This document shows, in pieces, positions 1 to 26,540 of a DNA stretch of 35,119 bases; the stretch's first letter is position 1; every line of letters starts with the position of its first letter. The stretch is from a virus (Duplodnaviria > Caudoviricetes). The notes under the pieces are model-generated. The model was given only the letters and a program-made list of their open reading frames with translations. It searched no databases and was not told the origin of the DNA. The DNA lies in IMG/VR virus record IMGVR_UViG_3300037313_000296, positions 1 to 35,119 of that record; one strand, 5' to 3'. The position numbers and the translations under genes were made by a program.

Positions 1-240
1 GGATTTTTTTTTGAGGCAAGATCTGCTTTAGTGATCACCCAAAAAACGTGTATGCTCGGTTCTGTATACAGCCCTGAACAGGTGTTTGGGGCTTGACAAA
101 CGACACGGGACCACTCAAAGGATCGAGACACTCCGGGCGGGCCTGCCCAAGGGGATTGGCCTTCTCCCCACCGACCTCTTTGGCGCATCTCGGTCCCTTG
201 AGTCGCCCCGTGTAGGGCGACAGGATCGACGCTAAGGGGC

Positions 241-2569: not shown

Positions 2570-2789
2570 TGCTGAACAATTCCTGCCGGATGCCAACCAG
2601 ATCCCGATTGGTGTCTACTCCAGTGGACAGGGCGATCCTCGCACGGATTCGGCCTTGTCTTGGATGATCAACACCATCAACGGTCCCCAGCAGATCCATA
2701 ACGGTGATTGGGTCATCACGGACAGCGGCTTCAAGCGCATCATGGACCCAGCAACCTTCGCCAATACCTACGAACTGGAGGAGAGCTAA
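2535..2789 (+). CDS. Small conserved phage protein (YRxKPxVIxAEQF...GDWVI...FxxTYE family), possible nucleotide-signal sponge
   Basis: ATG at 2535 after GGAGGAAGAAAAGG; family motif recognised; adjacent to the DUF2829 gene. Confidence 0.7.
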   Translation: MARYRQKPPVIDAEQFLPDANQIPIGVYSSGQGDPRTDSALSWMINTINGPQQIHNGDWVITDSGFKRIMDPATFANTYELEES

Positions 2790-2790
2790 A

Positions 2791-3045
2791 ATGACGCAGG
2801 ACGCAGGCTTCGGTTTTGACTCGGCTTTGATCCATCTGAAGCAGGGCAACAAGGTTGCCCGAAAGGGCTGGAACGGCAAGGGCATGTTCCTGTTCCTGAT
2901 CGAGAACTGGGCCTTCACGGACGGCAAGCATGATAACTACCCGAACCTCCCCTTCATCGCCATGAAAACCGCCGATAACAAGGTGGTGCCATGGCTGGCG
3001 TCTCAGACTGACATCCTTGCTTCGGATTGGGAGGTTGTGAACTAA
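2791..3045 (+). CDS. tad2: DUF2829 protein, Tad2-family (Thoeris anti-defence) sponge
   Basis: F..AL..LK.G.KVARKGWNGKGMFL ... MKTADNKVVPWLASQTDILASDW signature; ATG at 2791 with GGAGGAG RBS. Confidence 0.8.
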   Translation: MTQDAGFGFDSALIHLKQGNKVARKGWNGKGMFLFLIENWAFTDGKHDNYPNLPFIAMKTADNKVVPWLASQTDILASDWEVVN

Positions 3046-11432: not shown

Positions 11433-12263
11433 ATGCCGATGCCTCCGGTTCGGGATTCCTTCGTCCAGTTGGTCCCTCTCTTCACTGACGCCGGATGGAT
11501 TAAGCATGCGAACACAGTAGTAAGTGCAGACGGAAAAACTCTGACGTTGAGTGCCACGGCAACGGGTCAATCAACTTACATGTACATTAACGTCATTCCC
11601 GGCGTGACGTACACGTTGTCTATGGTCACTACAGCGTCTTCAGGTAATACCGTTCTTTCCGTGCGTAAGCTACCCGGTTCCAACAGCGTAGACGACATTA
11701 CACCGCAGACAAATAAGTCTGGTAATGTTACTGTAACCTTTGCTGTGCCACAGGGCACCACTCAGATACGAGTTATTCTGTGGAACGACGCCATTGGCAC
11801 TTTCACCTTCTCCAACCTCTCCCTAGTGAAGGCCGTTCCCGCCTACGACCCTACCAAGATCCAACCCTACGATTCTGCCAAGAGGCAGGACTACTTCAAG
11901 GAACTGGTCGTCAACGGTGACTTTAGTCAAGGGCTGATCGGGTGGACAGTGGTCGGCGGTACTTGGGATACGCTTAACAGTAAAGCTGTTCTCACATCTA
12001 CCGGGAACTCCCAATCCATGTACCAAACGTTGAATATATCTCCCAATACCCAATACGTGTTGAAGGCAGATGAAGCGACAGCTAAAGTTGCCATCTATAA
12101 TGCACAGGCATCTGCATCGATCATTGGGTACACCCAAGGACAGCAAACGCGCTCATTCAACTCGGGCAACAACGCTTCAGTTCGTCTGTATTTGAGTAGC
12201 GACAATCTAGGTGCAGGAGTCTTCACTTTCGACAACATCAGTCTCAAACGAGCGATCCCATAA
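11433..12263 (+). CDS. Tandem carbohydrate-binding-module (CBM4/9-like) virion protein
   Basis: Two jelly-roll repeats (VIPGVTYTLS...FTFSNLSL; LVVNGDFSQGLIGW...ISPNTQYVL...FTFDNISL); more A/T-ending codons than neighbours. Confidence 0.7.
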   Translation: MPMPPVRDSFVQLVPLFTDAGWIKHANTVVSADGKTLTLSATATGQSTYMYINVIPGVTYTLSMVTTASSGNTVLSVRKLPGSNSVDDITPQTNKSGNVTVTFAVPQGTTQIRVILWNDAIGTFTFSNLSLVKAVPAYDPTKIQPYDSAKRQDYFKELVVNGDFSQGLIGWTVVGGTWDTLNSKAVLTSTGNSQSMYQTLNISPNTQYVLKADEATAKVAIYNAQASASIIGYTQGQQTRSFNSGNNASVRLYLSSDNLGAGVFTFDNISLKRAIP

Positions 12264-12275
12264 GGAGGGCAGAAC

Positions 12276-12860
12276 ATGAACCTTCAGCAGATGATCGATC
12301 GTCTGAACACCAACGTTGACGATGTGGTTGATCCAAGTGACGCCACAGGCTGGTTTAACGAGGGCAAGGACAAGATGGCGATTGCTGTCGAAGCAACCTT
12401 TCCCGACCTCGACTCGACCAATCTGAACGGAGCCTTCGTCTTCCCGGCGAAATGGCACTCCCTCCCAGTTCTCTACGCCAGCGCCATGTACAAGAAGCAG
12501 GATACGGCGCTGTCGGAAGCGAATGACTATATGGCCCAGTTCTTCGACGGACTGAAGGACTTCGTTAAGAGCTACGAGATCCCGCCTCGCTACCGGGACG
12601 ACAGGCTCTCCCAGCAGTTCACCGCTACGGCTGGGCAGACGACCTTCACAATCACGAAGCTGGGGTATGATCCCGTCTACGGCGATGTGAAGGTCTACGT
12701 GAACGACCGGATCGTTGACTTCACGCAGGGTGATCCGACCACGGCGCCGAACGATATCATCCTGACCACGGCGGCTTTGCTTAATGACGCTGTGACCATG
12801 ATCTGGGAGGAGCATGTGGATCTGCTCGAACCTCCCTATAACTGGCAAAAGAACTGGTAG
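12276..12860 (+). CDS. Head-tail adaptor (P22 gp4-like)
   Basis: MNLQQMIDRL...WFNEG...FPAKWHSLPVLYA helical adaptor pattern, directly before the nozzle. Confidence 0.7.
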   Translation: MNLQQMIDRLNTNVDDVVDPSDATGWFNEGKDKMAIAVEATFPDLDSTNLNGAFVFPAKWHSLPVLYASAMYKKQDTALSEANDYMAQFFDGLKDFVKSYEIPPRYRDDRLSQQFTATAGQTTFTITKLGYDPVYGDVKVYVNDRIVDFTQGDPTTAPNDIILTTAALLNDAVTMIWEEHVDLLEPPYNWQKNW

Positions 12861-12870
12861 GTGACATAAC

Positions 12871-15060
12871 TTGGCACGGCAGAGCATCACTCCGAACCCG
12901 TCCCTGAAGCTGTTCGAGGCGTACATGGACTTCTCTGGGGGCCTCAACTCGGAGCAGTCCAACGAGCGCCTGCGGGACAACGAGTTTATCACGCTCGACA
13001 ACGTTGACCTCAGTTCCCGAGGTTCGGCAAAGCGTCGGACGGGTCGGGTGTTGCTCAACACCCAGACGGGTCGGGGGCAGGGCCTCTTCTACTACTACCG
13101 TCAGGGCCAGTCGAAGCCGGACATCATCTTGGCGATCGGCGGGGCGCTTTACGTGCGGGAGAACGGCTCGACTACGCTGAAGCCCATTACGATCGTTGAT
13201 GGTGCCGGGACGCTGACGTTCCAAGCAACCCAGAACATCAATGCTGTTCAATACGGCATTAGCATGTTCGTTGCCACGGGGACTAAGTTGTGCGAACTGT
13301 CCTATGATACTTCTCCGGCTTGGGCACCGAGTACGGTCTATGCGGTCAACGCTATGGTCAACGCCAACGGTCTGATCTACACCTGTACCGTTGCTGGTAC
13401 TTCCGGCACTGTGGCGCCGACCCACACATCCGGTATTGCTACGGACGGAACGGTCACATGGCAGTACACTAGTCAGGTCTGGAACGCCAAGGTCGTTGAC
13501 CCGTACAAGCCTACCGTGCAGGAGGCCATCTTCATCGGGACGAACGGCCTTGCCGCAAGTCCGGACGCCTATGTGCAGGACGGCACCGACACGGCTCTTG
13601 CTGTTGCCGGGATCAAGCCGAGCCGACGCACGGGTGTTGTCAATGCAAAGACGACCATGACGGGCTACATAAACAAGCCCTCTGGCATGGGCGGTATCGA
13701 CTACAAATGGGAGTACAAGAAGTCTGCGGATTCGACTTGGGTGTTAGGCCGTGATTTTACCGCCGACACTTCGGGAGGAAAAACGTGGGACTTTACGCCG
13801 GACACGGCTGTCAACTACGACATCCGGCTCACCGTCCGGGCCACGGGTACATCCACTCCGACTCCCAACTCGTCGCTTACCAACTACGTTGTCAACAAGA
13901 CCGAGGATAAGCTGAACACACCGAAGCCCGTCTCGGGGATTCAGACGTGCCGGAAGATCCTCCTCCACTGGGATCGTTTGATCCTGTCGGGGGATAGCAG
14001 TAACCCCTACCAAATGTACATCTCGGATCTCAACGCTCCCCGGTACTTCCCGACGACAAACACGATCAGTTTCGACACCGGGAAGCTGGAGCCGATCACG
14101 GCGATTACTCGATTCCGGGACATGCTGGTGATCTTCACCAAGACCACGATCCAGACGCTCTCGGGCAAGTCGCCGGATGACTACCGCCACAGCCTGATCC
14201 ATGATGGGATCGGATGCGTTGCTTCTCGATCGGCGGCTGTCGCTGGGAACGTGGTCATCTTCCTCAGTTCTGAGGGCCTGCACCTACTGAAGCCGAACGC
14301 TCTGACGCTGGAGGTTATGAACGTCGCCCGGATCGACTTCCCGATTCGGTCAGCCATCGCTTCCCTAGTTAAGCTGTCGGCAACGGTGACAGATGGTAGC
14401 TACTCTGGATCTTACGGCGCCTCAGACGCCTGTGCGATGGTCTATGATTCTCAGTACTGGCTGTGCTTCCCCAGTTCTCAGGTTGTCTACCGCTTCTACT
14501 ATGACGGCAATATGTGGGTGCGGGACACCTCCAGTCGCCTCACATTCAATCAAATGTCCAACTACGGCGACGACATCTACGAACTGTCGGTCGGCGGTAA
14601 GCTCTACCAGCAAGACAAAACCGTCTGGACCGATGACGGAGAGGTCTACCCAGTTACCGTGGAGTCGAAGGCGTTTGACCTGAGTGCCAGCTTCAACTTC
14701 AAGAAGCTGAAGCGTGTCTACATGCTGGGCAAGCACTTCCAGACAACCAACACCAACTTGAAGGTGACGATCACAGCCGATTCGGCGATCGTTATGACGC
14801 CGGAGACTGGGCAGGCTCAAGTCATCGACGATCGGGCAGTTTGGATCACGACTTCGACGCCGAATATGCACTTCTACACGGGTACAACGGTAGGCTCATG
14901 GATCTTGTCGAAGATCCCGCTTGGCAACGTGCAAGTGTCGGTGCAGAAGGCTTCAATTCGAGGCAAGTGCCGTCGAGTCAAGGTCAAGATCGTCCATGAC
15001 GAGAACACGCCCTGTGAGGTCTTCGGATTCGGCCTTGAGTTCAAAGAGAAGAGGCCGTAA
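12871..15060 (+). CDS. Tail nozzle/hub (P22 gp10 / T7 gp12-like) with an inserted CBM5/12-like module
   Basis: DFSGGLN...NVDL...KRRTG start, beta-propeller repeats (ITAITRFRDMLVIF, GIGCVA), FKKLKRV motif; insert AWAPSTVYAVN...DGTVTWQY. Confidence 0.8.
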   Translation: MARQSITPNPSLKLFEAYMDFSGGLNSEQSNERLRDNEFITLDNVDLSSRGSAKRRTGRVLLNTQTGRGQGLFYYYRQGQSKPDIILAIGGALYVRENGSTTLKPITIVDGAGTLTFQATQNINAVQYGISMFVATGTKLCELSYDTSPAWAPSTVYAVNAMVNANGLIYTCTVAGTSGTVAPTHTSGIATDGTVTWQYTSQVWNAKVVDPYKPTVQEAIFIGTNGLAASPDAYVQDGTDTALAVAGIKPSRRTGVVNAKTTMTGYINKPSGMGGIDYKWEYKKSADSTWVLGRDFTADTSGGKTWDFTPDTAVNYDIRLTVRATGTSTPTPNSSLTNYVVNKTEDKLNTPKPVSGIQTCRKILLHWDRLILSGDSSNPYQMYISDLNAPRYFPTTNTISFDTGKLEPITAITRFRDMLVIFTKTTIQTLSGKSPDDYRHSLIHDGIGCVASRSAAVAGNVVIFLSSEGLHLLKPNALTLEVMNVARIDFPIRSAIASLVKLSATVTDGSYSGSYGASDACAMVYDSQYWLCFPSSQVVYRFYYDGNMWVRDTSSRLTFNQMSNYGDDIYELSVGGKLYQQDKTVWTDDGEVYPVTVESKAFDLSASFNFKKLKRVYMLGKHFQTTNTNLKVTITADSAIVMTPETGQAQVIDDRAVWITTSTPNMHFYTGTTVGSWILSKIPLGNVQVSVQKASIRGKCRRVKVKIVHDENTPCEVFGFGLEFKEKRP

Positions 15061-23527: not shown

Positions 23528-24164
23528 GCGGATCTGCCTCCTTCAGGGTAATCAACTGGGAGTATGGCAGGGTTTCAATCCAATCGCAGAATTCCCGCCA
23601 CTCTTGTAGTCTATGCCCCTTCCGGCTACGATACATGTTCTTCAGGTTCTCGTAGCTCATGGTTACGGTGCGGCGGTAGACGAACCCGATGGGTACGAGC
23701 TTCTGAAGCAGGCGCCAAGTCGGAGAGCCAACTTTCTTGCCTTCAGCCCACCACCTCTGGATAACGTTGTTCACAATCACCAAGGTGTTCAGAACAACCG
23801 GGTGATCGGGGTCATCGAAGCTAAAATCGTCAGCAGTTAGCAGACGGCTTCCCAGCTTGTGCATCATGCTGGTCGAGTTGGCGACGGTGCCGACCTTATA
23901 TGTGTCGAACTCCTTCCACCATTCAGCCCCGGCGATGATGTCTACGCCGACGAGGATCTGGCGCATAAATTTACCGTGATCGGACCCGCCCTTGGACAGC
24001 CGGAGAGCTAGAGAGAAGTCGTTCGGACCCATGTAAAACTTGGTGCTTAAATCGGGTTCAAGGGTCTCGCCCGAGTCGCCCTTATCCCAGCTTTCCCAGC
24101 TATTCCGCATACCACGAATGGCGTTCTCCCAGTTGTAGATGCCTAAATGCTCAAAGCGGATCAT
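23466..24164 (-). CDS. ThyX-like (flavin-dependent thymidylate synthase fold) phage protein
   Basis: AIRGMRNS, HGKFMRQI, WWKEFDTYKVGT..NSTS.MHK and R..HRL.EW motifs; canonical RHR motif absent. Confidence 0.6.
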   Translation of the reverse strand: MIRFEHLGIYNWENAIRGMRNSWESWDKGDSGETLEPDLSTKFYMGPNDFSLALRLSKGGSDHGKFMRQILVGVDIIAGAEWWKEFDTYKVGTVANSTSMMHKLGSRLLTADDFSFDDPDHPVVLNTLVIVNNVIQRWWAEGKKVGSPTWRLLQKLVPIGFVYRRTVTMSYENLKNMYRSRKGHRLQEWREFCDWIETLPYSQLITLKEADPHAGNRVENRPNGTEGGAARE

Positions 24165-24652
24165 ACCTGCCGCCCCTTTCCGTACCGATGGAAGTAGACG
24201 CCGTGCCGAATCGCATCCCGTTCGTGGATCAGAGTTGGGCGTCCGAGGCAGGTGTAACTCCGGCCCTTCTTCTCTAAGACCCCGAGCTTCACCAGTTGCT
24301 CATCAGCAACTCGAACCTTGTCAGCCGGATCTTGGAAGACAAAGGCGATTCCCTCGTTCCAAGCAACCATCCGAAGATACCCGATTAACTGGGGAGTTTC
24401 AAGGGCTGACCAAGATTGAGCCTGAGCCTTCGAAGCCTGAAGCCGATACGATTCGCAAACAATAACAGACGGCGCCAACATGTGGATCATTTCAGCATGG
24501 TTTCCCCAGTAGAACTCTTGACCCGAAAACTGTGCCGAAGCGATATGCCCAAACGTCTCCAGTTTCCCATCGACATATAAGGCCCAACCAGTCGTGCCCT
24601 TGCCTTCGTCAAAGTTACCGGACGGATCTAGGCAAAGCACCCTCGCCATCAT
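24161..24652 (-). CDS. RuvC-like Holliday junction resolvase
   Basis: VLCLDPSG...TTGWA, IVCESY and HERDAIRH acidic RNase H-fold motifs. Confidence 0.75.
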   Translation of the reverse strand: MMARVLCLDPSGNFDEGKGTTGWALYVDGKLETFGHIASAQFSGQEFYWGNHAEMIHMLAPSVIVCESYRLQASKAQAQSWSALETPQLIGYLRMVAWNEGIAFVFQDPADKVRVADEQLVKLGVLEKKGRSYTCLGRPTLIHERDAIRHGVYFHRYGKGRQV

Positions 24653-24682: not shown

Positions 24683-24711
24683 AGCATATCACGTAGCATG
24701 TAATCTGTCTA
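24683..24711 (-). promoter_or_regulatory. sigmaA promoter restarting the replication arm after the inserted cassette
   Basis: TAGACA-17-TATGCT with extended -10 TG. Confidence 0.7.
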
Positions 24712-24722
24712 GTGGGGACAAG

Positions 24723-24751
24723 CTATATTCGCTCCCATAGTTGCATAAGAT
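24723..24751 (+). promoter_or_regulatory. sigmaE-like (mother-cell sporulation) promoter of the FtsK-Replic_Relax cassette
   Basis: CTATATT-14-CATAAGAT versus B. subtilis sigmaE consensus (T/G)(A/C)ATA(A/T)(A/T)-N14-CATACA(A/C)T; no sigmaA promoter seen on this strand. Confidence 0.55.
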
Positions 24752-24772
24752 GGGAGCAAGAGGTGATGAAAC

Positions 24773-26095
24773 GTGCTGATTCCTGCAAAAATCGGCTTGA
24801 GCATGGCTGTGATAGGCGGGTACGTGGCGATCAAGTACTTGCTGACTCCGAAGATCCGGCGAGAGGCTGAGGAGACCAAGGCCCTGCTGGTCGAAGCCCT
24901 CGAACTGTCCAAGATCGAAACTAGGGCAGACGACGAGATCCACCGACCGGAGGTGTGGGGCTTGGAGCGCACCCGGTACGGCTGGAAGGCTCAGGTTCGA
25001 CTGCCCAAGGGGTTCACGGTAGAGGCTTTCAAGAAAAAGCTGGGCGCCATTGAGCAGGCCACGGTCTCGAAGATCGACGTCCAGCACGTTAAGGGCCGGG
25101 AGATCTTGCTGAAGCTGGGAATGAAGCCCCTACGGGATCGGATGGACTATGACGACTCTCTCCTAGTTCTGGGGGAACTGAGCCTACCCTACTTCACGCC
25201 GTTTGGCGTCCGGCACCTGAACTTCAGCGACGAGGCGTGTTGTCACCTGATTGTCGCCGGAGCTACCCGGATGGGCAAGACCGTCTTCCTTCGGCTCCTC
25301 TTCACTCACCTGCTTCGGGCAACATCAGGAAAGGTCAAATTCTATTATGTCAACAACAAGCTGGAGGACTACTATCCACTGGCAGGGGTGCCCCAAATCC
25401 CCAAGCCTGCTGAGTCCACAGCCGATGCCTTCGCCATGCTGAACAGCGCCCGGCAGGAGATCGCCGCTCGAAAGGAAAAGCTCCGGGCCAGCCGAGATTC
25501 GGTCAACGTCCGGCAGTACAACGAGAAGCACCCAGACGATCCAATCCCGCCGTTGTTCGTTGTCTTCGACGAGTATGGGAGATTCGCTGAAGATGACGAC
25601 CTTCAAGACATCGTAACTGAGATCGCAGAGACAGCCGGATACCTTGACGTTCATCTCGTCATCGCCACGCAAAGACCGGATGCGACGACCGTATTAAAGC
25701 CCCGGATTCGGGCAAACATTCTAACGAGAGTCTGCTTCCAAACAGCCGATGAGAAGAACAGCGAAATCGTCGTGCATGTACCCGACGCCTATCACCTCAG
25801 TTCCATCAGGGGCCGGGCAGTTGTCCTCGACGGGATGCCGATGCTGGCTCAGATCCCCTACATCTCGGAGGACCGGGCGATGGAATTGCTTCAACCATTC
25901 AGGAGTGAACAAGATGTTGAACCAGAGAGACCAGATGATTTTGGACTATCTTCGGCACTTCCGGGTTTTGTCAAGGGACCAGTTAGGCCAGCTAGTATGC
26001 CCGGAACTGGCAAGGCCATGGGCTACGGTGAACCGGATTATGAAGCGCCTCGACCGAGACGGCCTCGTAACAACCGTACCCCGGCCCAAAGATGA
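24773..26095 (+). CDS. Membrane-anchored FtsK/SpoIIIE-family ATPase
   Basis: N-terminal TM helix; HLIVAGATRMGKT Walker A, FVVFDEY Walker B, VIATQRPD and IRAN motifs; GTG start with RBS AGAGGTGA. Confidence 0.92.
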   Translation: MLIPAKIGLSMAVIGGYVAIKYLLTPKIRREAEETKALLVEALELSKIETRADDEIHRPEVWGLERTRYGWKAQVRLPKGFTVEAFKKKLGAIEQATVSKIDVQHVKGREILLKLGMKPLRDRMDYDDSLLVLGELSLPYFTPFGVRHLNFSDEACCHLIVAGATRMGKTVFLRLLFTHLLRATSGKVKFYYVNNKLEDYYPLAGVPQIPKPAESTADAFAMLNSARQEIAARKEKLRASRDSVNVRQYNEKHPDDPIPPLFVVFDEYGRFAEDDDLQDIVTEIAETAGYLDVHLVIATQRPDATTVLKPRIRANILTRVCFQTADEKNSEIVVHVPDAYHLSSIRGRAVVLDGMPMLAQIPYISEDRAMELLQPFRSEQDVEPERPDDFGLSSALPGFVKGPVRPASMPGTGKAMGYGEPDYEAPRPRRPRNNRTPAQR

Positions 26096-26483
26096 GTGCT
26101 ATCTCTACATGCCAAACCCGGTCCTAATCCACACAGAATCAGCTAAGATCCGGCACTTCCTTGCGATCGCTGACTTCTACATCCGACTTGGATGCCCAGA
26201 GATCTACGAAGTCGAGCCACAGTTCGACGCCGAATACATTCCAGATGCGTACACCCGGCTCGGGCCAAACGGTGAGGCCATTCTAATCGAGGTCCAGCGA
26301 TCGCACATCAGCCATAAGCAGATGCAGAAGAAGATCGACGGGTTTGTCAAGACCTACAAACTGGGAAAGCATGATGCCCGAACAATGTACCTCGTAACCG
26401 ACGAGAACTTTCGGTTTGCGGTGCCCGAGGGGTTCCGGGTCGAGCGGATTGCCCTGAAAGAGCAGAAGCAGGGGGTATCGTAG
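25914..26483 (+). CDS. Replication-relaxation (Replic_Relax-like) protein: winged HTH plus PD-(D/E)xK-like domain
   Basis: RDQMILDYLRHFRVLSRDQL wHTH, HFLAIADFY, IPDAY...IEVQRS; ATG 25914 with RBS AGGAGTGA inside the ATPase gene. Confidence 0.8.
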   Translation: MLNQRDQMILDYLRHFRVLSRDQLGQLVCPELARPWATVNRIMKRLDRDGLVTTVPRPKDECYLYMPNPVLIHTESAKIRHFLAIADFYIRLGCPEIYEVEPQFDAEYIPDAYTRLGPNGEAILIEVQRSHISHKQMQKKIDGFVKTYKLGKHDARTMYLVTDENFRFAVPEGFRVERIALKEQKQGVS

Positions 26484-26510
26484 GTACTCCCTGCTCCAGT
26501 TCTCCCAGCC

Positions 26511-26536
26511 AGCGGCCTAAAGTGGGGCCGCTTTTT
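26511..26536 (+). terminator. Terminator closing the FtsK-Replic_Relax cassette
   Basis: AGCGGCC-TAAAGTGG-GGCCGCT-TTTT; a second 13-bp hairpin at 26467-26495. Confidence 0.75.
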
Positions 26537-26540
26537 CGAT

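Follow-up and report, generated by a model that had tools for sequence, protein, structure and literature searches.

A two-gene cassette carried by phages and plasmids of spore-forming bacteria is, we tentatively propose, an intracellular conjugation device: the host's mother-cell sigma factor would switch it on, its products would cut their own replicon and pump it across the septum into the forespore, and the motor would be an ATPase with a repeatedly swapped arginine. Transcription of the cassette in the mother cell is likely, judging by the promoter motif. That the sigmaE-timed pair cuts phage DNA and pumps it into the forespore is the best mechanism we can offer, and we would give it an even chance. 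The pair itself is very common, was already known as a gene pair and has so far had no function assigned to it; new here are the arginine swap and the tested conservation of the sigmaE motif. Entry of phages and large plasmids into endospores is only partly explained in the accounts open to us (PMC12991052, PMC10294663). If true, the proposal would mean that conjugation parts have been newly put to use within one cell, would provide lytic phages and plasmids with a route to long-term survival, and would give a general answer to how non-integrated elements enter spores. The arginine swap stands apart from this and can be tested in its own right as a question about FtsK-family motors.

The cassette and its two proteins

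The window (the whole stretch of DNA analysed, 35,119 nucleotides of a viral record) holds most of a podovirus-like phage genome, as judged by an ORF profile scan. Its plus strand encodes terminase, a P22-like portal, capsid and lysis genes, and a minus-strand arm encodes DNA polymerase A, a primase-helicase, SSB, Sak4 and an exonuclease. Relatives of the DNA polymerase are found in Bacillus and Paenibacillus phages (39–42%), and the endolysin was uninformative as to the host. Elsewhere, a Tad2-like (Thoeris anti-defence) domain lies at 2704–3045 (PF11195, E 2.5e-26), and two virion-region proteins at 11433–15060 gave weak matches, below the cut-off, to carbohydrate-binding modules. The cassette consists of two plus-strand genes within the minus-strand replication arm that overlap by 182 nt:

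24760..24766, plus strand: ribosome-binding site of gene 1 (from the sequence)
24773..26095, plus strand: gene 1, FtsK/TcpA-type ATPase of 440 aa (PF01580, E 3.3e-11; phrog_1358, E 4.8e-55)
24776..24844, plus strand: single N-terminal hydrophobic helix of gene 1, predicted membrane anchor, residues 2–24 (helix in the model; 19-residue hydropathy 1.71)
25259..25282, plus strand: Walker A loop, GATRMGKT, containing Arg166, which is specific to the clade (alignment)
25919..26092, plus strand: disordered run-on tail of gene 1 within gene 2, no gamma domain (pLDDT <50)
25914..26483, plus strand: gene 2, Replic_Relax/MobC-like protein of 189 aa (PF13814, E 4.5e-10; phrog_2190, E 8.6e-25)
26467..26495, no strand assigned: 13-bp hairpin spanning the gene 2 stop codon (from the sequence; stop-codon hairpins occur in many relatives)
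26511..26540, plus strand: intrinsic-terminator-like hairpin with T tail (from the sequence)

The preliminary description had reported two overlapping genes opposed to the replication arm, with their own terminator and no mating-pair genes in the window. These points were borne out: both ORFs have profile matches, a hairpin with a T tail lies at 26511–26532, and none of the 35 ORFs scanned in this record, which is an estimated 73% complete, was identified as a mating-pair gene. It had also called the cassette inserted. The opposed orientation stands, but a recent insertion does not, since the GC content of the cassette is that of the genome (56.2 versus 56.0%) and the upstream neighbour family, phrog_1981, is present in 9 of 13 relatives tested. 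We therefore regard the cassette as an old resident. The first downstream gene runs in the opposite orientation in 15 of the 16 relatives that have a called one.

The model of gene 1 (pLDDT 84) comprises the N-terminal helix, an alpha domain and a RecA-type beta domain. Its best fold matches are TcpA (6o1x, E 1.3e-21) and the FtsK alpha-beta motor, and both Walker A and Walker B are kept. The fold ends at about residue 376; past this point there is no structure and no Pfam match for a gamma domain, and the last ∼58 residues are frame run-on. Gene 1 stops at varied codons of gene 2, with a constant frame offset, in 19/19 loci, and overruns gene 2 by 89–293 nt, in one frame throughout, in 28/28 close loci examined, an overlap that might couple translation of the two genes or permit a frameshift fusion. 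Because the tail is unfolded and ends at the first stop arising in the other frame of gene 2, we conclude that gene 1 has no gamma domain, as first described for this membrane-anchored FtsK/SpoIIIE-type ATPase. A gamma domain or a gene 1–gene 2 fusion was dropped as an explanation in view of the unfolded tail; a longer protein fused with gene 2 was not found among 305 candidates, which is weak evidence.

Gene 1 is thus an FtsK-like motor without a gamma domain, encoded beside a relaxase-like gene, as is typical of TcpA. It shares with TcpA of Clostridium perfringens pCW3 the alpha-beta motor, the absence of a gamma domain and a similar alteration of the basic residues of loop I. However, TcpA keeps its arginine finger (LARLSRATG) and, in the descriptions available, serves a complete mating pore together with a relaxase of the tyrosine-recombinase type. 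With chromosomal SpoIIIE/FtsK it shares the alpha-beta motor, the Walker motifs and the basic residues of pore loop II (R632/K643, kept as R301/R313), whereas it lacks the gamma domain and has one helix in place of the multi-pass membrane domain. Among 120 close homologs, R301 and R/K313 are each kept in all 120. The basic residues of pore loop I (K657/R661 in FtsK) are lost; E327/E331 stand in their place and are variable.

The FtsK arginine finger, R620, is also lost: the corresponding residue of gene 1 is a glycine (G289, window 25637–25639; glycine in 116/120 close homologs). In a set of 163 sequences, 135 have an arginine in the P-loop and no finger and 25 have the finger and no P-loop arginine; none has both, none has neither, and three were left unscored. 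The choice between the two arginines is thus strictly either-or in 160/160 scored sequences. A quick tree of 67 of the 163 sequences needs four changes, at least three of them forced by strong branches. The ATPase looks maintained, since the Walker motifs are kept and exactly one of the two arginines is always present. We infer from these alignments that gene 1 is an active ATPase whose catalytic arginine could come from its own subunit.

Gene 2 is modelled as a winged helix (residues 1–64) followed by a PD-(D/E)XK-type nuclease fold (80–187). Foldseek gave no match for the model under E 0.001. VIA-align gave Z-scores of 8.9 (rmsd 3.1, 102 residues aligned) and 8.1 against PD-(D/E)XK nuclease folds and 7.9 for the winged-helix domain. 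With the PF13814 match above cut-off, these values agree with the winged-helix, nuclease-fold Replic_Relax protein proposed earlier. All 49 sequences compared share E101, D111, E126, Q128 and K140. On this model gene 2 has the architecture of a MOBC relaxase, with a putative nicking activity. CloDF13 MobC and pAD1 TraX, as far as their accessible descriptions go, likewise join an N-terminal winged helix to a restriction-endonuclease fold and adjoin a coupling ATPase. Gene 2 differs from them in its E-x-Q active-site variant and in its setting, phages and non-mobilizable plasmids.

The sigmaE-type promoter motif

The features upstream of gene 1 are:

24725..24751, plus strand: sigmaE-type promoter motif ATATT-14-CATAAGAT (ATATT at 24725–24729, CATAAGAT at 24744–24751)
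24714..24723, plus strand: SpoIIID-box-like site abutting the −35 element, identical at 9/10 positions to the footprinted spoIID site (PMC517825 Table S2)
24731..24757, no strand assigned: perfect inverted repeat of 8 bp that surrounds the −10 element, a possible operator or gene 2 binding site
24683..24711, minus strand: divergent sigmaA-like promoter TAGACA-17-TG-TATGCT (9/12, extended −10), facing the phrog_1981 gene at 24161–24652

The motif pattern was taken from print, from PMC3789822 and Table S2 of PMC517825. The sigmaE consensus in the table is TCATATT-13..15-CATANANT, and the −35 element separates the regulons, with ATA for sigmaE and AC for sigmaK (PMC3789822). Apart from the site before gene 1, neither strand of the window holds a perfect ATA-N15..17-CATAnnnT; the total is one perfect and one one-mismatch copy (0.42 expected). 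Conservation was scored in a clade of loci in which gene 1 leads the operon, 18 in number and chosen by architecture after earlier results had been viewed; 16 of them, the window included, were left below 85% identity (pairwise identity 37–70%). A perfect ATA-N16-CATAnnnT was present 15–35 nt before gene 1 in 9/16 members. With at most one mismatch the count rose to 13/16, or to 15/16 if spacings of 15–17 were admitted. In the same DNA, 0/115 other crudely called genes had the perfect motif and 2/115 had it with at most one mismatch, and the shuffle means were 0.03 and 0.58. The boxes of the clade promoters are kept while the spacer has drifted. In L119, at 64% the closest relative, the −35 element is a sigmaK-like ACA, and the motif is missing from L120. 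Where a small gene precedes gene 1 (L009, L010, L011, L018 and L043), the motif is shifted upstream. TCATATT-14-CGTATACT stands upstream of the pair in the B. subtilis phage 268TH004, and a sigmaE-type motif was seen by eye on a Thermoanaerobacterium plasmid.

More distant loci (81, reduced at 70% identity to 32 lineages) gave a motif with p ≤0.1 in 9/32, where about 3 are expected, and 23/32 were not significant; the automatic choice of leader in this set was imperfect. The sigmaE-matching promoter motif of the preliminary description is present in the DNA, and a motif upstream of homologous pairs, which it had suggested looking for, is found in the close clade but is clear in only nine of the distant lineages. 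A sigmaA-like site answering to its back-to-back sigmaA promoter, which in that description would rescue the downstream replication genes, is likewise present, on the minus strand from 24711 to 24683, and has a counterpart in 8/16 clade members versus 1.4 in shuffles.

The window holds two SpoIIID-like sites versus 2.6 expected, and the one at the promoter is not conserved in the close clade. In the distant lineages a SpoIIID-like word, again based on the sites in Table S2 of PMC517825, stands 9 nt before a −10 element in 8/32 (null 1.0) and 20–23 nt before one in 9/32 (null 1.3), both patterns having been drawn after the data were viewed. Inverted repeats similar to that at the promoter were seen by eye in L004, L119 and L127 and are absent in others. 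No origin of transfer was identified: a look for repeats gave only this one at the promoter, and no conserved element was found downstream of the cassette in relatives. In three distant relatives (L154:1480-1611, L148:1330-1511 and L155:1390-1569) the promoter motif is separated from the first gene by a long leader with short direct repeats, noted by eye, which might be sites for relaxase binding or serve as origins of transfer.

The four complete relatives contain no detectable sigma factor, tyrosine integrase, serine-recombinase domain or parS (4/4). The likely reader of the motif is thus the host enzyme, and a phage-made sigma factor was rejected in this role. Use as a late promoter was rejected on copy number, with one perfect copy in the window and 0–4 per relative. 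Two of the complete relatives (G002 and G003) have three and four further perfect matches, most of them away from the cassette, which possibly mark other sporulation-timed phage genes. In a more distant locus, a sigma factor gene lies directly downstream of the cassette (L018:4672-5238). Conservation of the mother-cell motif across relatives suggests that the pair is switched on as the host begins to sporulate. The predicted sigmaE timing, first inferred from one motif, is backed by the 13/16 count and by the host range described below.

Relatives in phages and plasmids

Relatives of gene 1 were found in 246 phage records, 212 of them named Bacillus. All 344 plasmid records with gene 2 relatives come from genera that we take to be endospore formers, and 224 of these plasmids are typed non-mobilizable. 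Phage records with gene 2 relatives have spore-forming hosts by label in 23/26 and 103/105 cases. These counts come from similarity searches, which follow host kinship. Gene 2 is present in every close locus long enough to contain it; 18 long FtsK loci (L023–L040) that belong to another family and have no gene 2 match were left out before counting. A single-protein scan of viral contigs gave no match.

Apparent non-sporulating hosts were rejected in several cases. One record labelled Staphylococcus matches Bacillus phage DZ1 at 96.9% identity across 4.5 kb, and the scores of SpaA1 and TS-12 are identical to those of Bacillus phages. In the Staphylococcus-labelled phage that is 96.9% identical there to DZ1, the FtsK gene is annotated as two pieces (L161:1254-2395). 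A further close copy comes from a bin that is labelled Prevotella and has no SpoIIID; with at least 85% identity to a viral contig, it is probably phage DNA that was misbinned. The predicted restriction to phages of spore-formers thus agrees with the plasmid and phage counts, while the Prevotella-labelled copy and the confounding with host kinship tell against it.

The carriers include replicons whose replication systems are unrelated (phi29-like, siphovirus and plasmid), and among them are integrase-bearing phages and integrated prophages. FtsK genes without an adjacent gene 2 relative occur in SP-15, LIS04, two Bastillevirinae phages and a mycobacteriophage. In many relatives, and in none of the window's clade, a small gene lies upstream of the pair, in some cases annotated or predicted as a membrane protein. 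A clostridial plasmid operon (L162:2176-4990) consists of a SpoIIIAC/AD-family gene, an unknown gene, FtsK, Replic_Relax and a Spo0E-family gene; the AT-rich DNA upstream of it contains a sigmaE-type motif.

Similar pairs in Bacillus phages, which the preliminary description had mentioned, are in print as a 'DNA translocation operon' (0305phi8-36 orf200/201, SPO1 gp27.3/27.4, GBSV1 and Gamma; PMC3357382, Pathria 2012). There too a MobC-like nuclease adjoins a conjugation-type ATPase, and GBSV1 is directly matched by both our genes. In the published operon, however, the ATPase is described without a membrane helix and with separate anchor genes, whereas the present cassette has two genes, its own anchor and a conserved sigmaE motif. 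The accessible part of PMC3357382 proposes transfer in biofilms and contains no word starting 'spor' and no link to sporulation. PMC3853049 and PMC3853050 remark on the likeness to SpoIIIE, and one of them proposes DNA injection. Within the literature covered, with most subscription papers and bioRxiv supplements outside its scope, we found no paper linking the pair to sigmaE or to spore entry.

Possible roles in the sporulating cell

For an element in the mother cell, escape from loss at lysis takes one of four routes: entry into the forespore, a block to sporulation, completion of a lytic round or exit to a neighbour. Forespore entry fits best because the pair combines a pump with a DNA-specific nuclease and is common to plasmids that need host spores. 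Host sigmaE would transcribe the cassette in the mother cell as soon as the polar septum has formed, possibly limited by SpoIIID. Gene 2 would mark or cut a phage site, its winged helix supplying the DNA specificity that a gamma domain would otherwise provide, and gene 1 would assemble into an active ring, either at the septum or at the engulfing membrane. The direction of pumping would be set by production solely in the mother cell; SpoIIIE subcomplexes are reported to export DNA from the compartment in which they reside (PMC7780723). Both membranes would have to be crossed via a host opening, either the SpoIIIE pore or the SpoIIIA–SpoIIQ channel, and the phage would then survive starvation inside the spore. 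This two-membrane passage is the weak step, since there is no channel gene and one helix cannot span both membranes. Deletion of a related operon left plaques unchanged, so that the operon is dispensable for plaques (PMC3357382), which fits a role outside vegetative growth.

Several observations count against delivery into the forespore. Integrase phages carry the pair, yet an integrated prophage enters the spore with the chromosome. Host kinship confounds the apparent restriction of hosts, and in non-sporulating hosts true MOBC relaxases are functional (PMC12857230). The modest motif count in distant lineages, the sigmaK-like L119 and the motif-less L120 count on the same side, as do the Prevotella-labelled copy and the phage FtsK genes without an adjacent gene 2 relative.

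The pair might instead sabotage sporulation: a mother-cell pump would compete with or block host SpoIIIE, the nuclease would damage the chromosome in transit, and the cell would stay free for phage growth. No channel would be required, and the sigmaE timing, the restriction-type nuclease fold and the integrase-less phages are all consistent with such a role. However, the pair occurs on hundreds of plasmids that depend on host spores, and the retained catalytic arginine suggests work beyond obstruction; we consider sabotage unlikely. Export from the doomed mother cell to neighbours, alone or via the mating pore of a co-resident conjugative element, would make the pair a mobilization module that rescues DNA before lysis. 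A coupling ATPase beside a MobC-like relaxase is the layout of mobilizable elements, cell-to-cell passage was proposed in PMC3357382, and export accounts for, and is favoured by, carriage in integrating prophages. There is also a pilin-like neighbour in 268TH004, albeit weak (E 0.001, below cut-off), but no pilin-like gene in the window's clade. Any helper pore would need to function in the mother cell, and general mobilization would not predict restriction to spore-formers; export seems improbable to us.

It is rather less plausible that the pair processes DNA in the mother cell without transport, starting, resolving or tethering phage DNA at the membrane and so letting the lytic round finish during sporulation. 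The PHROG label of gene 2 ('replication initiation protein'), the position of the cassette in the replication arm and the loss of the FtsK loop I basic residues would suit this. However, the phage already has a polymerase, a primase-helicase and SSB, and the pair is found across replicons whose replication is unrelated. A plasmid–prophage maintenance module or relic with no role in sporulation, as suggested in PMC9658697, is very unlikely: partition genes (ParA, ParM) often adjoin the pair and 23/32 distant lineages have no significant motif, but it leaves unexplained both the conserved sigmaE motif and the covariation of the catalytic arginine in a clade without adjacent partition genes.

parS sites of phi29 have a part in spore entrapment. 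The outcome of delivery into the forespore, phage DNA inside the spore, would be the one proposed for entrapment through parS sites and Spo0A boxes (PMC12991052). That route borrows host segregation before septation, in contrast to the phage-made, post-septation pump proposed here. Searched with one parS pattern, the window gave a best match with three mismatches, which is chance level, and 0/5 records had a match within two. Spo0A boxes numbered 11 versus 5.05 in dinucleotide shuffles, but Markov models predicted 7.7–9.7, sibling words were equally common and the word ranked 2617 of 16384 heptamers; an excess was not retained after these controls.

Since both the mother-cell promoter and the spore-former host range are supported, delivery into the forespore can be tested directly in B. 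subtilis, for which the cultured phages 268TH004 and 268TH007 are available. Two small phi29-like phages (Salasmaviridae), Bfsp1 and DLc1 (L142 and L154), also carry the pair, and the motif of Bfsp1 has a sigmaK-like ACA.
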